A stretch of DNA of 64,000 nt from Botryllus schlosseri (Eukaryota), in assembly GCA_051294905.1 (NCBI GenBank), contig CM119371.1, positions 8,434,001 through 8,498,000 of the forward strand. Reading direction: 5' to 3'. Both the position numbers and the translations under genes were made by a program. The notes below the pieces were generated by a model. The model saw only the letters and a program-made list of their open reading frames with translations, was not told the origin of the DNA and ran no database searches. The stretch's first letter is position 1; each line of letters starts with the position of its first letter. Positions 6,216 to 57,448 of the stretch are shown one piece after another.

Positions 6216-7645
6216 TACGAATAGGTTTATAATTTGATTGTATTATTGTTTAATTGTAAATCAGGTCTCAATTTACATTTTAAATAGTTCATGGATGCAT
6301 GAATTGACAGTATTCTGCATTCCACGACGTTTTGAACGCTTCGAAGGTCTAAAAACTATCATATACTTGACAATACGGTGGTATGTGTATTGTGCTTTGT
6401 CGATATCTGCATTCATACTAATCCTCTGTGGCTTTATGATATATTTGAGTGGAATTACGCGATGGTCAATGCTTCTCAAATTTCAGAGTCTGCCTTCCAG
6501 TATTCCCGATGAGAACAACCGAAAGTTTTGTTTCGGCGCTATTCGTGGATTGTCGACCAACGACAAGATTACATTTCCCAACCACAGGAACAAAATAATG
6601 CCTGTTGTTTGAACCAACAAAATTAGTAAGCAAAAAGCAGCGCAGCAAAGCAAAGACCATTGCATGACATAGGCTCCGTTAGATGTCAGTTTCTAATTGT
6701 CCTAATGTATTCGTCTTTGTGCAGTAACATGCGTACAAATGAATTATTTTACTTCTTCATGAATAAACGATAATTTTTAAATAAACTTTTTCCTTTAAGT
6801 AGCGAGGTTTGACTACATTTTTTGCATATCAGATATCTTCATAACTGGTGCGTTGTTGTTACATCTGTTTCGTGTATATTCATGATGCAACGACACAGTG
6901 GTAACAGTGGGCAAAATCACCGTGTTATGCGTTTTGACAGTAATTTTAGTTGATATGAACATTATTTTTTACGATAATCACAATTTATGAACATTTTAAT
7001 GTATATCTGAGGTTGAAATTACTTCCGGTTCAGAGAATTCAATTTGTGATTATCAAATCTGCGATTTAACCGAGTTAAAATTTCTCGGGAGTAACTATAA
7101 ACGAGTTTTCCGTCCGCCATTATATGGAACCTGGTACATCCGTGAAATCACTGTCGATAACAACATGCAACTCAGCAGTTAGCAATGCAGTTTGGTATAG
7201 TTTACAATTCATACTGCCATGTCTGTGTGCGAAACCTGCGACTAATGTACGGCTAAGCCTATTTTGTGCTACTGATGACAGTACGTGTTCATTCTCTTCT
7301 AATAATTGATTTCAATCGCCGGATTGCAATGGAATCACATGTGTATTGCACTGGTTGCACTGCACCTCGTTTCTCCAACGGTGCTAGTAACATCGGTAGG
7401 CGCATGAAGGTTAACCCAAGATAACCTTTATATTTGAAGCAATTCGCTCTAGATCGGCATTACGTCGTTTTGGAGCAGATTGAGGACCGCAAAGCTGCAG
7501 CATTTGTATAGGTGCGATTCACGATACTTCATGGTTGTTGCAGGATTTATTTTATACCTTAAAACTAACATAAATATATTTACTGCGTCGTTTCTAAGGT
7601 GTCGTCCCGGAAATCTGTCTTCACCAAACGTTTAGAAGTATTGCG

Positions 7646-8590
7646 ATGGCAATCGATTGGATGCGGAGGAAATTGACTTATGTGACCGATCACATATTCC
7701 TGTTGATTGTGGCGTTAATGTTACTGGACACCGCTACAAACATCTACTCCACAATACAGTACTGTACACGCGAAGACCTACTACAAGGAAATGTACCCGC
7801 TATATTGTCAGCATTAGGTGTCATGATTGGTGTCTGCGTAAACACCGTGGTTATCAAACATGTCTGTTTGGCGAAGCAGTTGGCGAACAGCTCGAAGGAA
7901 TGGAAAGGTCTGGTTTATCGTTTTTTGACGACGTGGAAAAACGTACAATGCATGTGTGAATCAATCCCTCACTTATGTATCAACCTCTATCTGCTGTCGA
8001 AGAAAACAGTTCTAGAAATAGAGGACAATTTGTTGACTGAAGCATCGCCCATGATATCCTTCTGGTCAATTTTATTGTCGCTACATGTGCCGTACGAAGA
8101 GTATCTCGAGGCAAAAGGCGTTCAAGCATCTTTCACAGAGAGGTGGTTCGTTCTCGTGGCCAGACTAGGAGTATTCGTTACGAGGATAGCTGTTTTCGTT
8201 CATTTCGCAGTGGTCTTTGACTTCATAGGCGCTTTATTACTTTCCGCTATGTGGTTTTTTCGCTATATTTTCCTGCAATGCCGGATGGGCGAAGATAGTG
8301 ATAATTTTTTATACTGGTTTAAATCGAGGAATGGTGGGTCTACAGTGGCGACTTATTTCATGCTTACGCCTTTTTTGCCGCACAAATGTAGCAAAGGAGG
8401 TGCACTAATATTATTTGTTTTCTTCCTCGATCAAATGGTGGTTGTGTATATGTCTGATGTTTTGCATCAAAGTCAGTCTATTCAACAACAACCTCCGTGT
8501 CTGATCAGTTCTGTAGAAGTTAATTTGGTCAGTATCCTATCCTCTGGTTGCTTGATATTTTCCATAGCTCTCAGTAACATTTCGTCTTAG
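7646..8590 (+). CDS. XK-related (XKR scramblase family) multi-pass membrane protein, 314 aa
   Basis: Uninterrupted ORF with multiple hydrophobic segments; CESIPHLCINLYLL matches the XKR ESxPQLxLQLY motif. A 5' exon cannot be excluded. Confidence 0.75.
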   Translation: MAIDWMRRKLTYVTDHIFLLIVALMLLDTATNIYSTIQYCTREDLLQGNVPAILSALGVMIGVCVNTVVIKHVCLAKQLANSSKEWKGLVYRFLTTWKNVQCMCESIPHLCINLYLLSKKTVLEIEDNLLTEASPMISFWSILLSLHVPYEEYLEAKGVQASFTERWFVLVARLGVFVTRIAVFVHFAVVFDFIGALLLSAMWFFRYIFLQCRMGEDSDNFLYWFKSRNGGSTVATYFMLTPFLPHKCSKGGALILFVFFLDQMVVVYMSDVLHQSQSIQQQPPCLISSVEVNLVSILSSGCLIFSIALSNISS

Positions 8591-9312: not shown

Positions 9313-10939
9313 TTACACGTCTTTGATGCGTTTGATCGTAGCACTATCTAGATCACACAGTTCAAAAGATAAAATACCGCCAGAAAACGTTTTAGTTGTG
9401 CATTGTGAGAACGTGTTGTTGGTGGATTTCATCACAATGTCAGATATTTTCAACAGCGTGTCGAGGCTGCTAACCCGAGACAACCTTTCCTGCAACCATC
9501 GCAAATTAAAATAGAACTCCTTCGGAACATGTGGCAGCGCTGACGCTGGCAGGACATCAATTTCCACCGATGCACATTCTTCTTCATCTTGCTTCGGCGG
9601 TGCTTTGCGTATCCTCGAATCTGTTCCATACCTTTTCTTTATATGATCAGCTATCTTTATATCTTCCGACATGGACTTGATGTTTGTTCCGAATTTAGAT
9701 CTTTGCAAAACTGACTTATGCAATTTGACTTTTAAGCAGCGGAACTCCTCTGTGGTGGGTGTAGGCCGTGTGTCAGGCAATCGTGTGCCCGAATCAAGAT
9801 TCGCCTTTGTTTCATTTCTACTTTTGGTACTCGTGAAGATTGATTTCTTCTGCGTTCCGCGAACATATGTTTCGAAGCCGTGTCCGCTAGACTCGGCCCA
9901 TCTGTTCTTGTCGACTGCTGGGTCCACACCCTTGGCGGTTACCGGCTTCCGCGTAGTATTGCGAGACGGCGAAAGTTTCCTCTTTCTTGGGTCCTTTTTG
10001 GGGCTTGAAACGTTACGCTGCTTCAAATCTAAATCATAATTTATCATTTTATGCTCTTCGCCCTTCAATTCGCACTTGACAGTTGATCTGGATTTAGTTC
10101 TTCGCAGTGTGGACTTGTGCAATTTCATTTCTAGGCTGCGGAACTTGTCAGGTGCAGGTGCAGGTTTATCATGCGTTATTAACATCCATCGGCCCGAATT
10201 AGGTGTCTCCTGGTTTTCATTCTTACCTCTAGTACTTTCGGAAGTCAAATTATTTTGCGTTCCGCGGATACATTTTTCCAAACAGTGGTAGACTGCGGTA
10301 GACTAGTGGTAGACTGCGGTAGACTTGGCCAAACTTTTCTTGTCGACAGCCACCGCTTCTTTGACGCCAACAGGCTTCAACGCAGTATGGCGAGACGTTC
10401 TGCCTTTTCTTGGTTGATTTTCAATACAATTTAGTACAGAATTATGTGTAGTTCCAGATGCCAATATTTTCAAAGTCGATTCTGCGCGCTGTGAAAGGTT
10501 GAGAAGTTTCTTCGCAGTCGTTTTCGACTGTGCCTTCCCTTTCGTATCCGTTCGGGTGTACTTTCTAACGTCGACCCTTTCTCGTTCTGATATTTGCTTG
10601 CCAGAGACGCCGAACATTTCCGTTTTTTCTTCTTAACTGGTGCTTCATCATTTTGAGTAAGCTATTTTAACATATTTGCTCGAAATGGTGATAATTTTCT
10701 TTTCCGCGTCACATTCAATTTTAAATTATCTTCAGTCCAGCGAAGTACTGACTCGATCAATTCGTGAATCGCTCCCTTAGGTCTGTGGGCGATGCGCACT
10801 TTTGGCCGATGAGCAGCGACTACGACACCTTCCATACTGCTTCCTGTGTGTACGATTCGCAACGTCCAGCTCGACAACTTTTTAATAAATGCGAGCATAT
10901 CGTTACCATTCCCAGAAGACAACTCTACATTGTCTACAA
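9313..10939 (-). pseudogene. Disrupted intronless gene with basic repeated blocks and a C-terminal AF9/ENL ANC1-homology (AHD)-like domain
   Basis: C-terminus LRWLQERLSRV...LLKISDIV...LSFELCDLDSATIKRIKD resembles AF9/ENL AHD (FDFDLCSLDKTTVRKLQ). ORFs 10303-10617 and 9313-10281 are in frame across one TAG. There is a further break near 10620-10662 and a hAT insertion at 10940. Confidence 0.6.
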
Positions 10940-13570: not shown

Positions 13571-14949
13571 AGTTATCAAACATGTCCGTCTGGCGAAGCT
13601 GTTGGCTAACAGCTCGAAGGAATGGAAAGATTTGGTTTATCGTATGACGACGTGGAAACACGTACAATGCACGTGTGAATCAATCCTTCACTAACTAAGG
13701 ATGGTGTGAACCTCTGAAAGGTTCAGGTTCGTGTGAACGCGAACGTGATCTTCATGACGTCACGTTACGTCATATTACTAATTCCAACCAACATTTCAGT
13801 GAAGTGATAGCCTATATTAATGTACAGATTGTACTCGATACCTATAGCGACGACTCGGCGGGCGATATAATGCCGCAATGCTGAAGTACATATTGGCGTT
13901 TTGAACGTCGCCAAATGTATCAACTGGGGAAATCAAATAATGTAATAGTCCCATAGAATCAATATCTTCCGTCGCTTTGCCAACAATTTCACGAGGAGTT
14001 GCATGGGAGTTTAATCTTACGCCTTAACGGTCCACGCCAGACCGGACTATGTATTCGGCGTCTGAGTATTGCTACGTTGATATTGAGCAGAGAGTATAAA
14101 GCGGTTTCTATACTCGCCACCGATTTTACCCCGCCAAGTAGGCCTAATACAGTAGTAGCCGACACCCCAATCGCACGGATTTGGTTTTTATGATACAAAC
14201 ACATATTACATCAACATTGACCACGTACGCCTGCTAGGTTTTTAACGTCAGACAGCGATAAAAATTCCATTGAGTGATTGAATAGACATCATACGCTGAC
14301 TACATGTCCTACATTCTCAACGAAAGATGTTATAATTAAGGTAAAATTGTTAAATATGAAAAAGGTTTACAGTGCAGAACCTAACAAGGTTCGTTTGTGA
14401 ACGCGAACCTCTAAATTTCTGAGGTTGACACACAGAACGCGAACGTGAACCTCACGTTCACACGATCCCTCGTATCAACCTCTATCTGCTGTCAAAGGAC
14501 GAAACAAAAACGAGTCAGGAAATAGAGGACAATCTATTGACTCAAGTACCGCCCATGATATTCATCTGGTCAATTTTGTTTTCGCTACATGTCCCGTACG
14601 AATAGTATCTCGAGGTCAAAGGCATTCAAGCATCTTTCAAAGAGAGGTACCTCGTTCTCGTGGCCGGACAAGGAGTGTTCGTTACGAGCATGGCTGTTTT
14701 CGTTCATTTCACAGTGGTCTTTAAATTCCAGGGAGCTATATTTCATTGCGCTATGTGGTTGTTTCGCTATATTTTCCTGGAATGCTGGATGGGCGAAGAT
14801 TGTGATAATTTTTTATGCAGGTTTAAATCGAGGAATGGTGGGTTTACAGTGGCGACTTATTTCATCATTATGCTTTTTTGCCGTGAAAATGTTGCATCAC
14901 AGTTGTACTAAGATTAGATGTTTTCTTCCTCCATCAACTGGTGGTTGTT
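13571..14949 (+). pseudogene. Degenerate duplicate of the XK-related gene, split by an insertion
   Basis: 13571-13692 matches ~7850-7972 and 14471-14949 matches ~7977-8445 at DNA level, with frameshifting indels. Confidence 0.9.
13696..14470. mobile_element. MITE with GTGAAC/GTTCAC subterminal repeats inserted in the XKR pseudogene
   Basis: Imperfect TIR AGGATGGTGTGAAC / GTTCACACGATCCCT, and the XKR homology resumes directly after it. An inverted copy of its right end starts at ~14949. Confidence 0.75.
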
Positions 14950-24826: not shown

Positions 24827-24899
24827 TGCTAACTGAAGACTGTATTAATCGGGATCATAAGTAGTATATAGGATCGGTCGCGAACTAACGTTTTTTTGC

Positions 24900-25420
24900 A
24901 TGGGTTCTTATGGGCCCGCTCGCACATCGTATTGAAAACTCGTGTTGGCATATCGTACTTTTAGACCCCCCCTATCGCTCGCACATCGTAATGTGTTCTT
25001 ATGGGTGCGCTCGCACATCGTACTTTCAAGTATAGGCTGCGGCGGTGACTCGTATTGAAAACTCGTGTTGGCATATCGTACTTTCGGGTGTAGGCATCTC
25101 TCGCACATCGTACTTTCGCATGTCGTACTTTCGCGTATAGGCTGTGTTGGTGATTCGCTATGTGTTCTTATGGTCGCGTCGGCATATCGTACTTTCGGGT
25201 ATTGGCATCTCTCGCACGTCGTACTTTCGCATGTCGTGCTTTCGCGTATAGGTTGTGTTGGTGATTCGCTATGTGTTCTTATGGGTGCGGTCGTGAATCG
25301 CCCTTTCGGGTATAGGCATCTCTCGCATGTCGTACTTTCGCGTATAGGCTGTGGTGGTGATTCGCCATGTGTTCTTATGGGCGCGGTCGTGATTCGTACT
25401 TTCAGGTATCTCTCGCGTGG
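24900..25420. repeat. Subterminal modular repeat array (left arm)
   Basis: Shuffled modules CGTACTTTCG, TCGCACAT/TCGCATGT, ATGTGTTCTTATGG and GTATAGGCTG. Confidence 0.9.
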
Positions 25421-25863
25421 TGTTGAATATGTACGAGTCGCCAACAATAACCGCGCAAACGGAAACGTGGCTTGCAAGAGGATTAAGCAGTGCGACCTAT
25501 ATTTCGAATGACCTGCGCGCTGAATTATTTCTCGTCCAGCCGCTACTATCGATTATTACACTAGACCGGTCAGTGTGAAATAGTTTGATCGTAAATTATG
25601 ATATATGACGTCGTAGTTTAGTCGTGTCAAATGACCGATCGTGTTCTCTTTCCTCGCTATTGATTGCTACCTGAATAATACTTTCGGCTTATTCGCTGTT
25701 TCGCGCCTACAGAATAGTCTGCTGTTCATAGTCACAGATTCATCGCGATAGCACAATTTTCACACCTCGATCAGTAGAACAACACCACACTAACGCAGTT
25801 GGCGAATCACATAGGTCATACATTTTACGCGAAATATTGTATTGTGGTATACAAATATGCAAA

Positions 25864-26500
25864 CTATTCTTTCAATTCAACAAGTCTAGTTAACGAATCG
25901 ATTTTCAAGCTGCCGACACAGTTTTTAACACGAGTGAGTTGATATTTCTTCCCGGGTACGAGCGAGGCTTTGTTCCATTGATCCAAAACCACCTCACCAG
26001 TATCATCCTTCAATGTAAAACTGTATAATTTCAACTCCTTTCCGGCCCCAGAATTGACCATCTTCTCCTCTCGAGAAACACAAGTAGCGGCGATCGAAAC
26101 GTATTCATCTTTATTCCCGTATACCGATTCGCAGGTCAATAATGGGTATTCTTCAGTCGTATGTCTCGATTTTCCATGCGTGGTTACTGACGAAGCCCGT
26201 CCCAGTAATACAGCAGGTTTTCCAGTAAACTTGTCAATTTGGACCCAACCGGATTTGACCATGAGTTTTTTTTCGTTTGGCGAATGCTTTCTCAATGTTC
26301 CCGAACAATTCACGATTGAAACACGTGAAAGATATCTCTTCGTTATTACCGTCGATGAATATACCTTTGAGATATTGGCTAACGCCACCTCTTTTGGGTG
26401 ATGAGACGAATTTGACGCCGACGTGAAAATTTGAAGTTGCTCCGACTTGCATAGTGTTGACGCTGTTCGATGTCATATCGTTTGATAAAGTGGGAGTCAT
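25864..26500 (-). pseudogene. Tandem OB-fold (RPA1/SSB-like) gene, left-arm copy, with a +1 frameshift
   Basis: Mirror image of 36521-37157; T8 run at 26266-26273. Confidence 0.7.
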
Positions 26501-29500
26501 CAGTGTAACTCACTACACAAATCAAGTTGAATCGTATTTGAATGTATTGATTCGACCCAACTCAAATCCTTTGACAAATCCTATTAACGCGATCTGTTGA
26601 ATCGAACGTAACCTGAATATTACTGACGCCAACATTCACCCGCATCGGATCATTCACACATTCCACGTCGGTGTTTTAACACTTATAGAATCAATACCAA
26701 CTATCTCTAACCCGATAATATTCAATCATTTTGGTAATTTGCCAACTTTAAATCCATTCGCGGGATGTACTAAAGGTAAATCCAAATAATCCAGAATGAA
26801 ATATTTGGACTTTGACATTGCGTGAATTGAAATAGGTTTGACAAACATGACTACCAACTTTCACCCAGTCACATTTTAAGATTATACTTTGAAACAATCC
26901 TTGAAACTGACAACTCTATTCACGACTCCGTTCCCGTTTGTAAAATAGAGTTTCAGAAATACTATCACTATGACAACTCAACATTTTAACATCTCGCCAT
27001 GCACAAACGAGTAAAATACAAAAACCTTGGTAAGTCAATCCGTTTGTAGTAACTCACCAAACCAAAACAAAAAGTGTCCGTATGAAAAGTAGACAAGACT
27101 ACGCGAGTAATCACTACAACCCACAAACATACCAACTCAGTTGTATCCATATCCCATCTTTTTTATTCAACTGTAAGATGAAGTAATTACTACTTGGCGC
27201 GCGGTTTGAGATTAACACATTACATTTGAGTATACGAGATTTGAATGTCTGACCAACGTAGTTGAGAATTCTTACAATCGAACGATGGTGTTATATTCAA
27301 AGTTATCATGCTGTGAACATAAGGATTGACGCATTGATTTGACATATGAGATTTGTAATAGTTGATCATTACTTGATTATTAAATTATGACATTATTAGA
27401 CCAGGGTTGTGTTGAAGGTTATTACGATACCAACAAACTTTTCAGAAACATTGTTATTAACATATCGATTTGTAAAACTAGATTAACGTGTCTGAAATGT
27501 TTTGATTGGGAAGATTAAGCCGTGTTCGTAAAAACCACGCAGCGTATTGTGGAAATCAGGAAATAATTTACAAATGTAATTGTCTCCAGTAACCAAGACT
27601 AAAGATGAAACAACAATTTTCTTTGTTGAACAATAACCGGTACAATACTTTATCGTCGTAATCAGCAGTGAGAATTGAAACACTTTCGCACATTATCCGG
27701 CGTCAAGATATCACACTAGGTGAATTGACATATCGCCGCTTGAATAATACCTAATCCGTTCGAACCATTTCACATACTTTGATCATTACAAAAGTAAATT
27801 GTGATATGTTTGTTAGATGCATTCAATTCAGTTAGAAGTGTCTAGTGCCCAACACTCGTAATATCAAAAAAGTACTTGCTACACTGTTATTTGCTAAACG
27901 TGTTTTGCATTGTTGTTCATTTGTAGTATTGATTGAAATTGTTCTTGAACCCTCAAATAATAATTCCCGACATGAAACCAAGCCGCTGAAAGTCGTTACC
28001 ATCACGAAGATACAATGTGCACGATGTTTGTCAAATGTGTCCTACCTGGCCAACAGAAAACAATTTTCACTCACTCGAAATGAAACCAATGTGATGGTCT
28101 CCATTCGATATTTTGTTTGTGTCAAATACTTTGCAATGAACACATTTGCGTGGTTGAGCTTTACATCATCTAGCTGTTATTTGTAAATCAAGATTTCGGT
28201 AAACTTGTAAATGTATCGTTTAACTAACCGACATTTAGTGATTGGGAAACATACCAGACGATACACATCCATCTCCGAAATACTTCATTGATCTTAATTT
28301 CCATCATCGTGATAATCGAAGTACATTTCTTTCGAATTCGTAACAACCGACTATGACATGATAAATTTTTGACAAGTTATGCTTAGAAGATTGGTTGCAT
28401 ATCGCGAAAAATAATATACCACTCATATTGATGCTGTTACTCCATTGATCGATATTTTCAAACGAGTAAAATTTATTACTTGAGTTTCTCCGCTTAATGT
28501 AAATGTAAACTCAGCCGTCTTTTAACATCAGAAAGACATTGATAAAAAGTAGGCAATCAAACGCTACAAGTTTAACTTTTGTAGGTTGTGTATGATTACC
28601 CCGCGCAACTCATTTCTCACCAAAGGTATATGAAATATATTCATGGTACACGAAAATACTCGATATTCTCTACGAACCTGTACAATGATTGGTGACGCTT
28701 TCAAACTGTTTCGATACCTCAAGACCTTTATTGTCTGAATGGTTGGTCATGTATCTTGATAATCGAGTAGTTCAACACACAACTAGTATTAACAGAAACA
28801 CCAGAGTTGCTTACACAAAAGTTTGTAAGTGCACAGTATGCGAATACCATGTGTAAGTCCAGCACAATTGGGGTATCCATCCGAGTTTAGTTAACACAAT
28901 TTACGACACCAAGGTCACCTCATCTTTCGTAAGACAACAAACCAACCAAGGCTTCAGGATATGTCCATGTCATAGCAATAAATCAGCTACTCCAACAACG
29001 GAATACATATGCTTACATCTTACACACAAATCAATCTACTTTGCTAACGAAAAGTGCCGAGCCATCACATGGTTGTCCTCACAACAATACAACTAAAACA
29101 TACTATCATACAAAATGGCTGTTATAGTCACCAACGGTACATCGTACAAGTAACAAGTCTCGAGAATCCAGTTACTCAAAAAACGTGAAAGTATTTTTAC
29201 ACCAAGTCGTTATGTTGACGAACGCGTATATTGTAATATCATGATCGATTTGCATTCGTTGGCTGCAAAAATGTCACTACTCTAAATAATTATATCTCAC
29301 TCAAAAGCATACTTGTCACCATTCGTTTTCATCAAGCACGAGTTCAAGAAACTTACTACGACATGAATTGTTATTTTTATGTTGTGTAAATAGTTAATAA
29401 TTAATTTTAGTAACACTATATCAACATCACGGAGTTGTGCGAATAGATTTACACGTAGTCTTGTGGTTTTAATCGAAGCACACAGCGTGTTCTAATGTAG

Positions 29501-29719
29501 AGTCATCTCTATTGTACAACAACTCGGTAATCGAAATGTATTAACATTTAAACAGCGATCCTGTTTCGTCACGCAAAAAATATCTTTACTGTCGCAACAC
29601 TCTGATACTCTGCACAAGATGTGTAAATCCTTTTCACACTCATAATAATACACTAACGGGATACCGACGTCAAGCAACAACGTTTACCAACATCACTGAC
29701 ACTGAACATACGATACCTA

Positions 29720-30330
29720 CCCAAGTAAAAATATCATTTTCACCACCAGGTCAGCCGTTACCTGTGTACAATTACCATTTGCCCTTGGGGGTCTAGCGTT
29801 ACCCGAGTAACAAATCCTTTTTCACTTGGAAATATATTTTTTCTCTGGGTAACAAACGTTTTTCACTTGGAAATATATTTTTTCCCTGGGTAACAATCCT
29901 TTTTCACTTGGAAATATATTTTTTCCCAGAGTAAGAAACCATTTTCACTTGTAAATATATTTTTTCCCCGGGTAACAAACCTTTTTCACTTGGAAATATA
30001 TTTTTTTCCCTGAGCAGCAAACCTTTTTCACTTGGAAATATATTTTTCCCAGAGTAAGAAACCATTTTCACTTGGAAATATATTTTTTTCCCTGAGCAAC
30101 AAACAATTTTCACGCGGAAATATAGTTTTTCCCCGGGTAACAAACCTTTTTCGCTTGGAAAGATATTTTTCCCTGAGCAACAAACCATTTTCACTCGGTG
30201 GTCCGTCGTTTACCTGAGTAAAAATATCATTTTCCTCTGGAGATCTGGCGTTTACCCAGTGTAACAACACATTTTCTCTTGGTCATCTAGCTTTTCCTAG
30301 AGTAACAAAACCATTTTCATTTTGAAATCT
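29720..30330. repeat. ~38-40-bp minisatellite (left arm)
   Basis: Unit approximately TTTTCACTTGGAAATATATTTTTTCCCNGRGTAACAAACC; about ten good copies plus degenerate flanking copies. Confidence 0.92.
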
Positions 30331-32690
30331 GACAAACACACCTGACAATTTGATATTTTTGTATATTGTTACAACGGATAGCGACAAAATATACACCAAC
30401 AACAACTCCAATACATTTGTGTAATCGCATATTCACTTGTGCTGATGCAACCCATCAAAATCATCGGTTACCCACATGCAATGTGTTGTTGTACATCGAC
30501 GTTTATGTTTTTGGAAAATTGGACAATAGGCTTCGATAGTTCTGTGATGTCCGGGTTCGTGCTTTGGATTTTCCAGAGTCAAAATGTCTGAATAAAACAC
30601 CTCCTTGACGATGGTTGGTATGTGGATAACGGTTGGATTTATGTCACCCATCGCGATAACAACTCCAGGTCGAGTTTTCCCCCGCGTGTTTACTATATTG
30701 TGTCTTTATTGGTCATGTATGTCTCGACATTCAGTTTGAAATCGGAAACCCTGATAAAGTATGTAACCGGATCCGGATATCAACTCTGAATCGATAAACC
30801 AATGAACAATATTCAAAGTAAACATGTTACACCCTGTGTTTCCACGAAAAAATACCATCCAGACATACGTCGCGCTTGTTTGCCCACATCAGTATACGCA
30901 TAAATGGAGGTGTGTGACATTGCATGCAATGTGTTGGTATACAAACATCGATCCACAGACATTATCATAGCCGGTAGTTTTGATGTAGATCGAATGTCAT
31001 CACACCCGATAACAATGTCATACCAATAAGCCACATTGCAATGACTCTGAGTCAATCTGAAGCAGGACATACAGACACCGTTCACTGATTTACTCGATGG
31101 CTTTATCGCGTTGTAACATTACAAGATAGTCATGACCCTATCTGCAGACGGACCACCCAGACCAATTGGATACATCGGTCAATATTCATCGTGTTGTCGA
31201 CACCGAAGTTTTCTGCTGAGACTACAGCGTTTGATCCAGGTGAATTATCGAAGTACGGTGCTCGAAATGATTGCGATCAGTCTTTCAGTCACGATGCATG
31301 GATGTCGCTACTCCCACATAACGACTCCAGATAAATATCGTGAGCAGTGATTCTGCAAATCTTGGACTGATATTGTGATCCAATAAGGTGTGTTTCTGTG
31401 GAATCAAGACTGCAATCGTACACCACAATAGAACACTACCTCGCGATTTCACACACAATCATAAAACACATCGTCGTAAGGGTCCAGTTCGTCTGGCAAC
31501 ATTTCGAAACGGTCGTCGCCACAAGAGATTGGTATCATTTTGAAACGACATCGTCACAAGTCTATTGACGTCGATTCTGTTGGTCATGTCAATCCGTTTC
31601 ACAATCCACCGTTTTTCAACTCCCCGCACCATAGTGTTACGACACAGACAAGAAGCGTCGGTGGAAATAATAAAACACGGAAAGCACACTTTGGTGTTAT
31701 TTGACATGGATTTTACACCCGACGAACCTTACATTCGAGCGATGCATTGGAATGACGCTTGTATTATTGACGTAGAAGGAACAGAAATGTATCGATTTAT
31801 TGGTTTCGTACATATCCAACTAAAACCAGGGTATATGATTGTGCATGGTTCGCATATTCGACTGTGAACGCCCAATTGGTATATGTTGTACAGTTCACTT
31901 TCACCGTCGTGCGAATAACCCATGTTAGGGTTCCATGTTTGTGTGTCTGTATGTCATGCTTCAGATTGACTCAGAGTCATTGCAATGTGGCTTATTGGTA
32001 TGACATTGTTATCGGGTGTGATGACATTCGATCTACATCAAAACTACCGGCTATGATAATGTCTGTGGATCGATGTTTGTATACCAACACATTGCATGCA
32101 ATGTCACACACCTCCATTTATGCGTATACTGATGTGGGCAAACAAGCGCGACGTATGTCTGGATGGTATTTTTTCGTGGAAACACAGGGTGTAACATGTT
32201 TACTTTGAATATTGTTCATTGGTTTATCGATTCAGAGTTGATATCCGGATCCGGTTACATACTTTATCAGGGTTTCCGATTTCAAACTGAATGTCGAGAC
32301 ATACATGACCAATAAAGACACAATATAGTAAACACGCGGGGGAAAACTCGACCTGGAGTTGTTATCGCGATGGGTGACATAAATCCAACCGTTATCCACA
32401 TACCAACCATCGTCAAGGAGGTGTTTTATTCAGACATTTTGACTCTGGAAAATCCAAAGCACGAACCCGGACATCACAGAACTATCGAAGCCTATTGTCC
32501 AATTTTCCAAAAACATAAACGTCGATGTACAACAACACATTGCATGTGGGTAACCGATGATTTTGATGGGTTGCATCAGCACAAGTGAATATGCGATTAC
32601 ACAAATGTATTGGAGTTGTTGTTGGTGTATATTTTGTCGCTATCCGTTGTAACAATATACAAAAATATCAAATTGTCAGGTGTGTTTGTC

Positions 32691-33301
32691 AGATTTCAAA
32701 ATGAAAATGGTTTTGTTACTCTAGGAAAAGCTAGATGACCAAGAGAAAATGTGTTGTTACACTGGGTAAACGCCAGATCTCCAGAGGAAAATGATATTTT
32801 TACTCAGGTAAACGACGGACCACCGAGTGAAAATGGTTTGTTGCTCAGGGAAAAATATCTTTCCAAGCGAAAAAGGTTTGTTACCCGGGGAAAAACTATA
32901 TTTCCGCGTGAAAATTGTTTGTTGCTCAGGGAAAAAAATATATTTCCAAGTGAAAATGGTTTCTTACTCTGGGAAAAATATATTTCCAAGTGAAAAAGGT
33001 TTGCTGCTCAGGGAAAAAAATATATTTCCAAGTGAAAAAGGTTTGTTACCCGGGGAAAAAATATATTTACAAGTGAAAATGGTTTCTTACTCTGGGAAAA
33101 AATATATTTCCAAGTGAAAAAGGATTGTTACCCAGGGAAAAAATATATTTCCAAGTGAAAAACGTTTGTTACCCAGAGAAAAAATATATTTCCAAGTGAA
33201 AAAGGATTTGTTACTCGGGTAACGCTAGACCCCCAAGGGCAAATGGTAATTGTACACAGGTAACGGCTGACCTGGTGGTGAAAATGATATTTTTACTTGG
33301 G
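32691..33301. repeat. ~38-40-bp minisatellite (right arm)
   Basis: Mirror of 29720-30330 (repeats of GGAAAAAATATATTTCCAAGTGAAAA). Confidence 0.92.
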
Positions 33302-36300
33302 TAGGTATCGTATGTTCAGTGTCAGTGATGTTGGTAAACGTTGTTGCTTGACGTCGGTATCCCGTTAGTGTATTATTATGAGTGTGAAAAGGATTTACAC
33401 ATCTTGTGCAGAGTATCAGAGTGTTGCGACAGTAAAGATATTTTTTGCGTGACGAAACAGGATCGCTGTTTAAATGTTAATACATTTCGATTACCGAGTT
33501 GTTGTACAATAGAGATGACTCTACATTAGAACACGCTGTGTGCTTCGATTAAAACCACAAGACTACGTGTAAATCTATTCGCACAACTCCGTGATGTTGA
33601 TATAGTGTTACTAAAATTAATTATTAACTATTTACACAACATAAAAATAACAATTCATGTCGTAGTAAGTTTCTTGAACTCGTGCTTGATGAAAACGAAT
33701 GGTGACAAGTATGCTTTTGAGTGAGATATAATTATTTAGAGTAGTGACATTTTTGCAGCCAACGAATGCAAATCGATCATGATATTACAATATACGCGTT
33801 CGTCAACATAACGACTTGGTGTAAAAATACTTTCACGTTTTTTGAGTAACTGGATTCTCGAGACTTGTTACTTGTACGATGTACCGTTGGTGACTATAAC
33901 AGCCATTTTGTATGATAGTATGTTTTAGTTGTATTGTTGTGAGGACAACCATGTGATGGCTCGGCACTTTTCGTTAGCAAAGTAGATTGATTTGTGTGTA
34001 AGATGTAAGCATATGTATTCCGTTGTTGGAGTAGCTGATTTATTGCTATGACATGGACATATCCTGAAGCCTTGGTTGGTTTGTTGTCTTACGAAAGATG
34101 AGGTGACCTTGGTGTCGTAAATTGTGTTAACTAAACTCGGATGGATACCCCAATTGTGCTGGACTTACACATGGTATTCGCATACTGTGCACTTACAAAC
34201 TTTTGTGTAAGCAACTCTGGTGTTTCTGTTAATACTAGTTGTGTGTTGAACTACTCGATTATCAAGATACATGACCAACCATTCAGACAATAAAGGTCTT
34301 GAGGTATCGAAACAGTTTGAAAGCGTCACCAATCATTGTACAGGTTCGTAGAGAATATCGAGTATTTTCGTGTACCATGAATATATTTCATATACCTTTG
34401 GTGAGAAATGAGTTGCGCGGGGTAATCATACACAACCTACAAAAGTTAAACTTGTAGCGTTTGATTGCCTACTTTTTATCAATGTCTTTCTGATGTTAAA
34501 AGACGGCTGAGTTTACATTTACATTAAGCGGAGAAACTCAAGTAATAAATTTTACTCGTTTGAAAATATCGATCAATGGAGTAACAGCATCAATATGAGT
34601 GGTATATTATTTTTCGCGATATGCAACCAATCTTCTAAGCATAACTTGTCAAAAATTTATCATGTCATAGTCGGTTGTTACGAATTCGAAAGAAATGTAC
34701 TTCGATTATCACGATGATGGAAATTAAGATCAATGAAGTATTTCGGAGATGGATGTGTATCGTCTGGTATGTTTCCCAATCACTAAATGTCGGTTAGTTA
34801 AACGATACATTTACAAGTTTACCGAAATCTTGATTTACAAATAACAGCTAGATGATGTAAAGCTCAACCACGCAAATGTGTTCATTGCAAAGTATTTGAC
34901 ACAAACAAAATATCGAATGGAGACCATCACATTGGTTTCATTTCGAGTGAGTGAAAATTGTTTTCTGTTGGCCAGGTAGGACACATTTGACAAACATCGT
35001 GCACATTGTATCTTCGTGATGGTAACGACTTTCAGCGGCTTGGTTTCATGTCGGGAATTATTATTTGAGGGTTCAAGAACAATTTCAATCAATACTACAA
35101 ATGAACAACAATGCAAAACACGTTTAGCAAATAACAGTGTAGCAAGTACTTTTTTGATATTACGAGTGTTGGGCACTAGACACTTCTAACTGAATTGAAT
35201 GCATCTAACAAACATATCACAATTTACTTTTGTAATGATCAAAGTATGTGAAATGGTTCGAACGGATTAGGTATTATTCAAGCGGCGATATGTCAATTCA
35301 CCTAGTGTGATATCTTGACGCCGGATAATGTGCGAAAGTGTTTCAATTCTCACTGCTGATTACGACGATAAAGTATTGTACCGGTTATTGTTCAACAAAG
35401 AAAATTGTTGTTTCATCTTTAGTCTTGGTTACTGGAGACAATTACATTTGTAAATTATTTCCTGATTTCCACAATACGCTGCGTGGTTTTTACGAACACG
35501 GCTTAATCTTCCCAATCAAAACATTTCAGACACGTTAATCTAGTTTTACAAATCGATATGTTAATAACAATGTTTCTGAAAAGTTTGTTGGTATCGTAAT
35601 AACCTTCAACACAACCCTGGTCTAATAATGTCATAATTTAATAATCAAGTAATGATCAACTATTACAAATCTCATATGTCAAATCAATGCGTCAATCCTT
35701 ATGTTCACAGCATGATAACTTTGAATATAACACCATCGTTCGATTGTAAGAATTCTCAACTACGTTGGTCAGACATTCAAATCTCGTATACTCAAATGTA
35801 ATGTGTTAATCTCAAACCGCGCGCCAAGTAGTAATTACTTCATCTTACAGTTGAATAAAAAAGATGGGATATGGATACAACTGAGTTGGTATGTTTGTGG
35901 GTTGTAGTGATTACTCGCGTAGTCTTGTCTACTTTTCATACGGACACTTTTTGTTTTGGTTTGGTGAGTTACTACAAACGGATTGACTTACCAAGGTTTT
36001 TGTATTTTACTCGTTTGTGCATGGCGAGATGTTAAAATGTTGAGTTGTCATAGTGATAGTATTTCTGAAACTCTATTTTACAAACGGGAACGGAGTCGTG
36101 AATAGAGTTGTCAGTTTCAAGGATTGTTTCAAAGTATAATCTTAAAATGTGACTGGGTGAAAGTTGGTAGTCATGTTTGTCAAACCTATTTCAATTCACG
36201 CAATGTCAAAGTCCAAATATTTCATTCTGGATTATTTGGATTTACCTTTAGTACATCCCGCGAATGGATTTAAAGTTGGCAAATTACCAAAATGATTGAA

Positions 36301-36520
36301 TATTATCGGGTTAGAGATAGTTGGTATTGATTCTATAAGTGTTAAAACACCGACGTGGAATGTGTGAATGATCCGATGCGGGTGAATGTTGGCGTCAGTA
36401 ATATTCAGGTTACGTTCGATTCAACAGATCGCGTTAATAGGATTTGTCAAAGGATTTGAGTTGGGTCGAATCAATACATTCAAATACGATTCAACTTGAT
36501 TTGTGTAGTGAGTTACACTG

Positions 36521-37157
36521 ATGACTCCCACTTTATCAAACGATATGACATCGAACAGCGTCAACACTATGCAAGTCGGAGCAACTTCAAATTTTCACGT
36601 CGGCGTCAAATTCGTCTCATCACCCAAAAGAGGTGGCGTTAGCCAATATCTCAAAGGTATATTCATCGACGGTAATAACGAAGAGATATCTTTCACGTGT
36701 TTCAATCGTGAATTGTTCGGGAACATTGAGAAAGCATTCGCCAAACGAAAAAAAACTCATGGTCAAATCCGGTTGGGTCCAAATTGACAAGTTTACTGGA
36801 AAACCTGCTGTATTACTGGGACGGGCTTCGTCAGTAACCACGCATGGAAAATCGAGACATACGACTGAAGAATACCCATTATTGACCTGCGAATCGGTAT
36901 ACGGGAATAAAGATGAATACGTTTCGATCGCCGCTACTTGTGTTTCTCGAGAGGAGAAGATGGTCAATTCTGGGGCCGGAAAGGAGTTGAAATTATACAG
37001 TTTTACATTGAAGGATGATACTGGTGAGGTGGTTTTGGATCAATGGAACAAAGCCTCGCTCGTACCCGGGAAGAAATATCAACTCACTCGTGTTAAAAAC
37101 TGTGTCGGCAGCTTGAAAATCGATTCGTTAACTAGACTTGTTGAATTGAAAGAATAG
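36521..37157 (+). pseudogene. Tandem OB-fold (RPA1 DBD-A/B or SSB-like) gene, ~211 aa if one A is removed from the A8 run at 36748-36755
   Basis: Domain 1: IFIDGNNEEISFTCFNRE...MVKSGWVQIDK (compare RPA1 LVDESGEIRATAFNEQ...YFSKGTLKIANK). Domain 2: FTLKDDTGEVVLDQWN...PGKKYQLT (OB-fold DxTGxIxLxxW motif). Two overlapping ORFs join at the A-run. Confidence 0.7.
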
Positions 37158-37600
37158 TTTGCATATTTGTATACCACAATACAATATTTCGCGTAAAATG
37201 TATGACCTATGTGATTCGCCAACTGCGTTAGTGTGGTGTTGTTCTACTGATCGAGGTGTGAAAATTGTGCTATCGCGATGAATCTGTGACTATGAACAGC
37301 AGACTATTCTGTAGGCGCGAAACAGCGAATAAGCCGAAAGTATTATTCAGGTAGCAATCAATAGCGAGGAAAGAGAACACGATCGGTCATTTGACACGAC
37401 TAAACTACGACGTCATATATCATAATTTACGATCAAACTATTTCACACTGACCGGTCTAGTGTAATAATCGATAGTAGCGGCTGGACGAGAAATAATTCA
37501 GCGCGCAGGTCATTCGAAATATAGGTCGCACTGCTTAATCCTCTTGCAAGCCACGTTTCCGTTTGCGCGGTTATTGTTGGCGACTCGTACATATTCAACA

Positions 37601-38121
37601 CCACGCGAGAGATACCTGAAAGTACGAATCACGACCGCGCCCATAAGAACACATGGCGAATCACCACCACAGCCTATACGCGAAAGTACGACATGCGAGA
37701 GATGCCTATACCCGAAAGGGCGATTCACGACCGCACCCATAAGAACACATAGCGAATCACCAACACAACCTATACGCGAAAGCACGACATGCGAAAGTAC
37801 GACGTGCGAGAGATGCCAATACCCGAAAGTACGATATGCCGACGCGACCATAAGAACACATAGCGAATCACCAACACAGCCTATACGCGAAAGTACGACA
37901 TGCGAAAGTACGATGTGCGAGAGATGCCTACACCCGAAAGTACGATATGCCAACACGAGTTTTCAATACGAGTCACCGCCGCAGCCTATACTTGAAAGTA
38001 CGATGTGCGAGCGCACCCATAAGAACACATTACGATGTGCGAGCGATAGGGGGGGTCTAAAAGTACGATATGCCAACACGAGTTTTCAATACGATGTGCG
38101 AGCGGGCCCATAAGAACCCAT
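37601..38121. repeat. Subterminal modular repeat array (right arm)
   Basis: Repeated CGAAAGTACG, CATAAGAACACAT and ATGTGCGAG modules; mirror of the left arm. Confidence 0.9.
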
Positions 38122-38434
38122 GCAAAAAAACGTTAGTTCGCGACCGATCCTATATACTACTATCATATGGTGCTCATATCAAAAGCATTCAGAGATATCA
38201 CACGTATAAAGCTATATTATTGCGAGAGTGCCTTACTTGTATCTTACACCTTACTTACGGACAGTCACGCAATCAGTTCTTCCGAATCGGGATAATAGCA
38301 TCTGCGACAGAGAACACTGTAAACTGATATCATTTGGTTAACTTTTAGCCACTCAACCTCCAATTCTTCGACAGTAACAAAGTTGCGCTACAATACAGGC
38401 GGCAGTAATCTGTCTAACAGCCGGGAATGTGAAT

Positions 38435-56469: not shown

Positions 56470-57425
56470 AGTATGTATGTATAGGGGGTAGGGGGGTGCT
56501 TCTCGGCTAACTGGGGCCTTTTGCACCATGGCTGTTTCGTTCATCAATACAACTGTAAGTCTTTAGTGGACAATATAACAAAAGCTAACCGTGATTGTAC
56601 TGTGGGAGGACTTTTCAATAGCGAACTAAGCAGAAGTGGAATATTTTGTCGATGTGCGGATTGAATTAGATGGACCCTGGCGGCTCGATCGTAGCGATTG
56701 CATGAAGTAAGAAAATGCACAAACGTCTCTAGTTGATTACACGTGTCGCACAGTACAGTTTCATGAAGACCAAGTCTATACAGATGGGCGTTCAGTCGAC
56801 AATGCCCCGTTTGCATCCTAATGAGAATAGATGATTCTCTACGGGAAAGCCGCGGCATGTTCGTATGATCATCGATGCTTGAAAAAATTCGTCGAAATTG
56901 CGACTCAATGTCGATTTGAGTCCAGTGATTATCCAATTTGATTTTGCAGAATTCGTGGATCAGGGTTCTTGCTTCGTTCGTAGATATGTCCTGTTTTTCT
57001 ATGTTGTTTGGTAGATCGTTCGCTGCGTCTCGCGCCAGTTGATCAGCTCTCTCGTTGAAACCAACATTCTTGTGTCCAGGTATCCATACCATCGAAACTG
57101 CTTTCTTATTGAAGGCCAAGGCGTTTTTGCGTTCTTGTATATCAATGACGATGCTATCCGTTGTATTGGTCGTGTTAATTGCTGTCAGAGCGCTTTTGCT
57201 GTCTGAAAAACTCGTGATGTTAGAATTTGGCAAGCAATTTACCGTAACCCAGTCCAATGCTGCTCTTATTGCAATAAGCTCTATTGTAGTAGAATATTTA
57301 TTGAACTCGAAGACTTTTCGGGTGCGTCTCTCAGAACAAGAAAAATGGATATAGTAGCGTAGATATGATACACCTGCCTTTACAAATATATAATTGTTTC
57401 TTGTAATAACTGGCCCCGCAGGCAT
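56470..57425 (-). mobile_element. 5'-truncated non-LTR retrotransposon (I-group-like): RNase H, C-terminal CCHC finger and 3' tail
   Basis: ORF 56544-57425 contains ELIAI..AL, FSDSKSAL, WIPGH...NERADQLA (RNase H), then RMQTGH...C..C...ET..H....C. A short TACA-repeat tail lies at ~56470-56483. Confidence 0.9.
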
Positions 57426-57448
57426 AGTGAATAAACTAACCTCTCAGC

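Follow-up and report, generated by a model that had tools for sequence, protein, structure and literature searches.

A frameshifted tandem OB-fold gene in a palindromic, high-copy element with Maverick-type ends: a possible element-encoded single-stranded-DNA-binding protein

The 13,302-bp element that we describe here is a nearly perfect palindrome, and each of its arms carries a gene whose product is predicted to consist of two consecutive OB folds. Our tentative reading is that this gene is a frameshifted copy of a tandem-OB gene, that it lies in a non-autonomous element with Maverick-type ends, and that intact members of the gene family most likely encode the element's SSB, a protein that binds single-stranded DNA. 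We put the probability of this reading at slightly under one half (roughly 0.45). If it is correct, then the fold of the family would resemble the ssDNA-binding core of RPA70 (DBD-A and DBD-B), and the gene would be doubled simply because it sits about 1 kb inside each of the 6.2-kb terminal inverted repeats (TIRs). The intact family protein would coat the strand that is displaced during protein-primed, strand-displacement replication, and the same coating would prevent the snap-back of 6-kb self-complementary single strands. The polymerase, the terminal protein, and the integrase would be supplied in trans by autonomous relatives, and the RPA-like gene would have been kept or acquired at the subterminal site where the accessory genes of Mavericks lie. 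We infer the replication role, the mobilization in trans, and how the giant arms arose; the tie of the element to protein-primed replication consists only of 12 terminal bases and a 6-bp target site duplication (TSD).

The window (that is, the whole stretch of 64,000 nucleotides that was analysed) is eukaryotic DNA with about 40% G+C, and the features that concern us are given in Table 1. The first-pass annotation of this DNA had described the ends as being of the Polinton type, and they are: the termini read AGTAGT...ACTACT and are flanked by a 6-bp TSD (ATCATA). It had also described the gene as intronless, with one outward-facing copy per arm, which is how the gene reads here. In each arm the gene faces the nearer terminus, and about 1 kb separates its stop codon from that terminus. 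The arms are identical at 6,218 of 6,219 positions, and the sole mismatch (31065 versus 31956) lies 14 nt from the inner edge.

Table 1. Positions of the element and of its features within the window.
Feature	Position	Strand	Remarks
Left TSD, ATCATA	24854..24859		Identical to 38162-38167
Left TIR arm	24860..31078		6219 nt; starts with 5'-AGTAGT (24860-24865)
Left-arm copy of the putative double-OB gene	25864..26500	-	Faces the left terminus; mirrored ORF at 25864..26472 (-)
Non-palindromic centre	31079..31942		864 nt; high-copy repeat; without a Pfam-recognisable ORF
Right TIR arm	31943..38161		6219 nt; ends with ACTACT-3' (38156-38161)
41-bp tandem array in the arm	32703..33219 (mirror 29774-30318)		About 10-13 copies
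Right-arm putative double-OB gene (RPA70 DBD-A/B-like as modelled)	36521..37157	+	211 codons across one frame break
Frame break, 8-A homopolymer	36748..36755	+	Two frames offset by +1
Subterminal degenerate repeats, between gene and terminus	37584..38121 (mirror 24900-25437)		Units of 111/96 nt
Right TSD, ATCATA	38162..38167		Perfect 6-bp direct repeat with the left copy

We regard the 13,302-bp unit as a real insertion because a six-base end motif combined with a 6-bp TSD is very unlikely to occur by chance and would not be made by a fold-back during assembly. As the sole explanation, an assembly fold-back artefact is ruled out by these matching termini and the TSD. The element also belongs to a large family. 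When Logan contigs from four sequencing runs were aligned to the window (152,866 contigs from run X1 alone), the summed contig depth was 53,000-590,000 across 31000-38111, as compared to about 11 for a contig from the unique flank, and the depth collapsed to the right of about 38111-38161 (in the bin 38112-38365). The arm and the centre are thus a very high-copy repeat family, and the stretch that holds the gene is present in runs from 11 studies and three organisms. Other copies of the family diverge by 1-9% in the aligned contigs.

The gene itself is broken in the window. On the plus strand, two overlapping ORFs are offset by +1 (36512..36787, with 91 aa, and 36549..37157, with 202 aa), and their frames converge within the run of eight A's at 36748-36755. 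We joined them across this run by a four-letter step, which is written as X. The joined reading (P0001) has 211 residues, from the ATG at 36521 to the stop codon at 37155-37157, and its two domains span residues 20-100 and 125-205, approximately. The gene copies of both arms share the frame break; in the left arm the mirror of the A-run is at 26266-26273.

That the two ORFs fuse into a protein of about 211 residues had been claimed at first pass, and the claim gains from a relative with an intact frame. P0002 is a public protein of 198 residues from a 3,664-nt ENA contig; it is 97% identical to the window's reading over 197 aligned residues, and it crosses the point of the frame break in a single frame. 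In addition, three of the listed contigs (from runs X2, X7, and X16) span the A-run, and each has one gap and is one letter shorter than the window; the alignment table places this gap only somewhere within the span. The window's copy would be either a truly frameshifted copy or a miscall of the homopolymer. We also considered whether the A-run might provoke programmed frameshifting or slippage during transcription, and we rejected this: only the run itself speaks in favour, and a relative with an intact frame (P0002) exists.

A second, remote homolog was found by phmmer: P0003, from a 12,767-nt contig, has 214 residues (25% identity; E = 4.7e-4, residues 16-181), and its length and layout are the same. 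On the strength of sequence comparison and structure models together, we take the 211-residue reading to be a genuine coding sequence and more than a chance ORF, because P0002 has it in a single frame, because P0003 shares its length and layout, and because OB folds are modelled in both halves. Antisense to the gene there is a stop-free frame of 139 aa (36623-37039, minus strand) without a Pfam match, which is probably a by-product of codon usage in the sense frame.

Perhaps the arrangement with one copy per arm is secondary and has no functional meaning. Its source could be a fold-back in the assembly, a very recent event in situ (a duplication in inverted orientation or a lengthening of the TIR), or a replication error in which half of a longer element was copied back, and the gene would then be a dead pseudogene. 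This would account for arms that are identical at all but one position when other copies of the family differ by 1-9%, and for a frame break that is found in both arms. There is no second copy in the window: with the centre plus the arm as the query, blastn found 0 matches in the other 50.7 kb. Also, a contig from run X2 (31024-31416, about 9% diverged) bridges the junction of the left arm with the centre, while none of the listed contigs bridges the junction of the centre with the right arm (with a criterion of 31 letters). The bridging contig implies that the arm plus the centre is the ancestral contiguous sequence. Nevertheless, we consider it quite improbable that the layout is secondary and the gene dead. 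An assembly fold-back could not have produced matching Maverick-type termini with a perfect 6-bp TSD, and an asymmetric centre of 864 nt is atypical of adapter-less fold-back reads. Furthermore, the argument concerns the layout alone, and it is compatible with a functional gene family elsewhere (P0002 and P0003). As to when the palindrome formed, the near-identity of its arms, as compared to the 1-9% divergence among other copies of the family, points to a recent origin. The candidate sources are a copy-back replication error from one end, an expansion of the TIR in situ, and homogenization.

Judging from the searches of sequence databases, the gene family seems to be an orphan: its fold can be modelled, but at the thresholds that we used it belongs to no sequence family. 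When phmmer was run exhaustively against 1.84 billion representatives, it returned P0002 and one remote relative (P0003) only, and the clusters of these two proteins are both singletons without names. Word-indexed searches, whether with P0001 or with a two-sequence profile (at near and at longer lengths), found nothing beyond P0002 and P0003, and tblastn over collections of metagenomic and viral contigs found no further relative. The PDB yielded no significant match by sequence, whether the query was the protein or the two-sequence profile, and there were 0 matches in Rfam. When both halves, the read-through, P0002, and P0003 were compared to Pfam, no family reached the threshold (including PF01336, PF16900, PF08646, and similar families), and P0003 had no match to Pfam at all; the top row was for PF01336 (OB-fold), with E = 0.099 and 13 bits as against a cut-off of 27 bits. 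The gene might have been a fragment of the host's RPA1, a case that the first-pass annotation had allowed for. It is not one, given that no RPA family from Pfam matched at the threshold and that the exhaustive search gave only one remote relative.

Structural modelling suggests an OB fold of the nucleic-acid kind in each half, with the N-terminal half modelled on the homolog P0003. The AF2 models of P0002 and P0003 were built from a two-row alignment and have low overall confidence (pLDDT of 49.6 and 51.7), and each of them gives just one domain at usable confidence. For P0002 this is the C-terminal domain (residues 117-198, pLDDT 62-81), whose best match is 2k75, an RPA-like OB domain from an archaeon (Z = 10.2, rmsd 2.0, 80 aligned residues), followed by the baculovirus SSB LEF-3 (Z = 9.5) and the RPA of M. 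maripaludis (Z = 9.5). All 50 of the 50 matches listed for the P0002 model are OB-fold proteins. For P0003 it is the N-terminal domain (residues 1-111, pLDDT 55-75), whose best match is DBD-A of human RPA70 (1fgu_A 181-297; Z = 11.0, rmsd 2.7, 105 aligned residues), followed by RPA70 from U. maydis (Z = 10.9) and OB-A of Teb1 (Z = 10.7). The N-terminal domain of P0002 is poorly modelled, yet the order of its elements is beta-beta-beta-helix-beta-beta. Also, 1fgu, which includes both DBD-A and DBD-B, can be aligned co-linearly to the P0002 model over 168 residues (Z = 8.1), with an rmsd of 13.1, which implies that the orientation of the domains differs. The first-pass annotation had seen two OB-fold-like motifs in the protein and had expected that structure prediction would turn up RPA1 DBD-A/B or SSB OB folds; the best matches, with Z scores of 10.2 for the C-terminal domain of P0002 and 11.0 for the N-terminal domain of P0003, go to an archaeal RPA-like OB domain and to RPA70 DBD-A. 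As a statement about the modelled fold, "double OB fold, RPA/SSB-like" is correct.

Other resources give a similar picture. In the ESM Atlas, the model of P0002 (pLDDT 0.78) has TM scores of 0.66-0.81 to models of RPA-like tandem-OB proteins, which we treat as a lead only. The Atlas's feature clusters that are nearest to P0002 are archaeal RPA/OB proteins, and for P0003 some of the nearest are unnamed clusters of animals (Chordata and Mollusca). Among the clusters that the Atlas ranks nearest there are animal "hypothetical protein" clusters of Cnidaria (335 aa), Chordata (230 aa), and Mollusca (185/305 aa). A Foldseek search of BFVD with the low-confidence model of P0002 gave 0 matches at E of at most 0.001; its weak rows were for LEF-3 of baculovirus and for SSBs of phages, and no protein of a Polinton, a virophage, or an adenovirus was among them. 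Six aromatic residues are invariant between P0002 and P0003 (F40, F50, F53, Y151, F153, and W167), and they map to strands 2 and 3 of each modelled barrel, as assigned by DSSP. According to a passage of PMC8276246, it is on strands 2 and 3 that base stacking by OB folds occurs. These conserved aromatics are indirect evidence that the tandem-OB protein may bind ssDNA. OB folds are also used to bind telomere ends, dsDNA (HIN), and proteins, and proteins of these kinds are among the matches.

This brings up the idea that the protein binds the ends or the repeats of the element, in the manner of Teb1, POT1, and TEBP or of HIN proteins. It would mark the ends for the initiation of replication, for integration, or for protection, rather than coat ssDNA in general. 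The top structural matches include Teb1 OB-A/B, Oxytricha TEBP-alpha, POT1, and HIN domains (p204 and p205), with Z scores of 8-10.7. There is also something that such a protein might bind: the degenerate repeats between the gene and the terminus extend for about 540 nt, and within them motifs of 15-18 nt recur five or six times. From their sequence, these motifs could be sites at which proteins bind the element's ends. On the other hand, generic OB folds from SSB, RPA, and MCM proteins score within about 1 Z unit of these structural matches, so the fold does not discriminate, and for each domain the top place goes to RPA or to an RPA-like protein. We consider a dedicated end-binding protein to be very unlikely.

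If the protein is instead an SSB that serves replication, then the element would depend on enzymes from elsewhere. We found 63 stop-to-stop ORFs of at least 50 aa in 30436-38324, two of which are the gene's own frames, and none of the other 61 belongs to a credible Pfam family. At this sensitivity, the double-OB gene is the only recognisable cargo, as had been stated at first pass. All of the Pfam rows at E of at most 0.01 in this region are artefacts that derive from repeats, with 0 passing stretches. For example, the 41-bp array produces spurious long ORFs and a spurious row for LBR_tudor. Among ORFs of at least 50 aa (a limit at which smaller degraded fragments would be missed), the element has no pPolB, no rve integrase, no capsid protein (MCP or mCP), no packaging ATPase, and no protease. 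A P-like transposase is absent as well. No core gene lies within 7 kb inward of the terminus, unlike in described Mavericks. We call the element non-autonomous because it has Maverick-type ends but none of the Maverick core genes. The proposal of an SSB for a Polinton-like lineage, which the first-pass annotation had put forward, therefore stands in part: the double OB fold, as modelled, and the Maverick-type ends are there, and pPolB and integrase are missing from the element.

The rest of the window does not supply these enzymes either, as its ORFs of at least 85 aa include no polymerase, integrase, capsid protein, ATPase, protease, or Rep/helicase. It does contain some other open frames. 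One of 329 aa (9316-10302, minus strand) has at its end the ANC1 homology domain (AHD; E = 5.3e-6, 26.8 bits as against a cut-off of 27 bits) and is probably an exon of a host gene of the AF9/ENL type. Another, of 299 aa (56547-57443, minus strand), has an RNase H domain (E = 7.3e-9) and probably represents the 3' part of the pol gene of a retrotransposon. A third, of 330 aa (7598-8587, plus strand), has hydrophobic stretches and no Pfam family. A 300-nt segment of this third frame (8003-8302) recurs 6.5 kb downstream at 14507-14806, with 86% identity.

The absence of replication genes from the element is also what would be expected if the double-OB gene were a passenger that has no role in replication. 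The element could have captured it, be it from the host or from a different transposon, such as a Helitron with an RPA-like gene, or it could be part of a nested insertion; it would then simply have been doubled together with the arm. RPA-like genes are known as cargo of Helitrons, including those of zebrafish and sea anemone (PMC4683698). Also, the gene may not be a constant part of the family. The depth over the gene is 73,000-111,000, or 2-4 times below that of the adjacent segments of the arm. In run X1, 22 contigs follow the window only as far as 36517, which is 4 nt before the ATG, and continue into different sequence; the consensus of these loose ends does not occur elsewhere in the window. 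Listed contigs from X2, X7, and X16 likewise end at 36517, and those from X2 and X16 stop near 37312-37327. The lower depth over the gene and the contigs that diverge at 36517 suggest a variable block, and so the gene block may be missing or different in part of the repeat family. A passenger would also be compatible with the 6 amino acid changes in 197 residues relative to P0002.

Several observations speak against a passenger. Neither the arms nor the window contain a Rep/helicase or any other transposase. We found no boundaries of a nested element around the gene, whether inverted repeats or others. Because there is no detectable sequence similarity to the RPA family, any capture would not be recent. 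P0003 has kept the length and the layout at just 25% identity, which argues for a long-lived functional family. And the site of the gene, beside the end of the TIR, fits the "accessory region" of Mavericks as it is described in passages of PMC8097293. Overall, we think that a passenger is unlikely, while taking it seriously.

A bolder form of our preferred reading, in which the gene encodes the element's SSB, would also explain the palindrome. A lineage of Mavericks/Polintons would have its own RPA-type tandem-OB SSB, and the palindrome would be the fossil of a "copy-back" defective genome that was amplified by a helper to thousands of copies. One end of an element would have been copied onto itself, so that two origins (which are also the ends for integration) and the SSB gene were retained, and the product would then have integrated. 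There is a precedent among viruses, as defective adenovirus genomes can bear extended inverted repeats of one end. We consider this scenario distinctly unlikely. If it were true, then this would be the first OB-fold SSB that is tied to a protein-primed eukaryotic replicon.

Protein-primed, strand-displacement replicons require an ssDNA-binding protein, and to our knowledge none has been named for Mavericks or Polintons. As of 2021, there was no report of an SSB with a canonical OB fold from a protein-primed replicon, according to a passage of PMC8276246. In the papers that we searched, we found no link between Mavericks or Polintons and an SSB, RPA, or OB-fold protein. In particular, there is no such link in the passages of PMC8097293, PMC11161782, PMC8502044, and PMC10748475 that bear on these elements; the supplements of these papers could list such a gene. 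A subterminal RPA-like gene within Maverick-type ends would be a concrete candidate for the SSB, and one that is open to biochemical tests. With this element, the known range of Maverick-type architectures extends to gene-bearing TIRs of 6.2 kb, to the lack of core genes, and to very high copy number. And its near-perfect palindrome may record how such replicons give rise to defective derivatives.

How does the element compare to known systems? Mavericks/Polintons are self-synthesising, adintovirus-like elements. In vertebrates, the commonest signature of Maverick ends is 5'-(AGT)2//(ACT)2-3' with perfect 6-bp TSDs, and (AG)3//(CT)3 is an alternative motif, according to passages of PMC8097293. 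The same passages (Barreat and Katzourakis) describe vertebrate Mavericks as being 12.7-24.6 kb long, with TIRs of 46-1,447 bp and intronless genes, and with accessory regions that separate the TIRs from the core modules. For Mavericks/Polintons, a passage of PMC10748475 has ranges of 100-1,500 bp for the TIRs and of 5-8 bp for the TSDs. Our element resembles these in its AGTAGT...ACTACT ends, its perfect 6-bp TSD, its possession of TIRs, its length (13.3 kb is within the range), and its intronless gene by the end of the TIR. It differs from them in that pPolB, integrase, capsid, ATPase, and protease are all absent. Its TIRs, at 6,219 nt, bear a gene and are more than four times as long as the longest that is reported in those passages (1,447 bp; PMC8097293). 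It also differs in that its family is very high-copy. Because the defining gene content is missing, we have not filed the element as a Maverick/Polinton, despite the matching ends.

P/Foldback elements have TSDs of 7-9 bp, and both the length of the TSD and the terminal motif of our element fit Mavericks instead. What it shares with elements of the Foldback/Galileo type, as portrayed in part of PMC3573991, is very long TIRs that carry tandem repeats.

At the level of the protein, the models put it close to DBD-A/DBD-B of RPA70 and to the short RPA/SSB proteins of archaea, with two consecutive OB barrels, each having the order beta1-3/helix/beta4-5. Unlike RPA70, it has only about 200 residues, it lacks DBD-F, the zinc ribbon of DBD-C, and the domains for partner subunits, and it has no significant sequence similarity. 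The SSBs of protein-primed replicons (p5 of phi29, B35SSB of Bam35, P12 of PRD1, and DBP of adenovirus) would be alike in the proposed role only, which is the coating of the displaced strand. Those proteins either lack an OB fold or resemble one only remotely, whereas the element's protein is modelled as a canonical OB protein.

Helitrons, as far as we know, have neither TIRs nor a TSD. Our element has long TIRs and a TSD, and it has no remnant of Rep/Hel. A parallel among Helitrons is the "Mothra mother element" of rice, which is semi-autonomous: it encodes an RPA and has lost RepHel (PMC4683698). By analogy with that element (PMC4683698), ours may be another case in which a transposon has retained an OB protein of its own without the main enzyme of replication or transposition.
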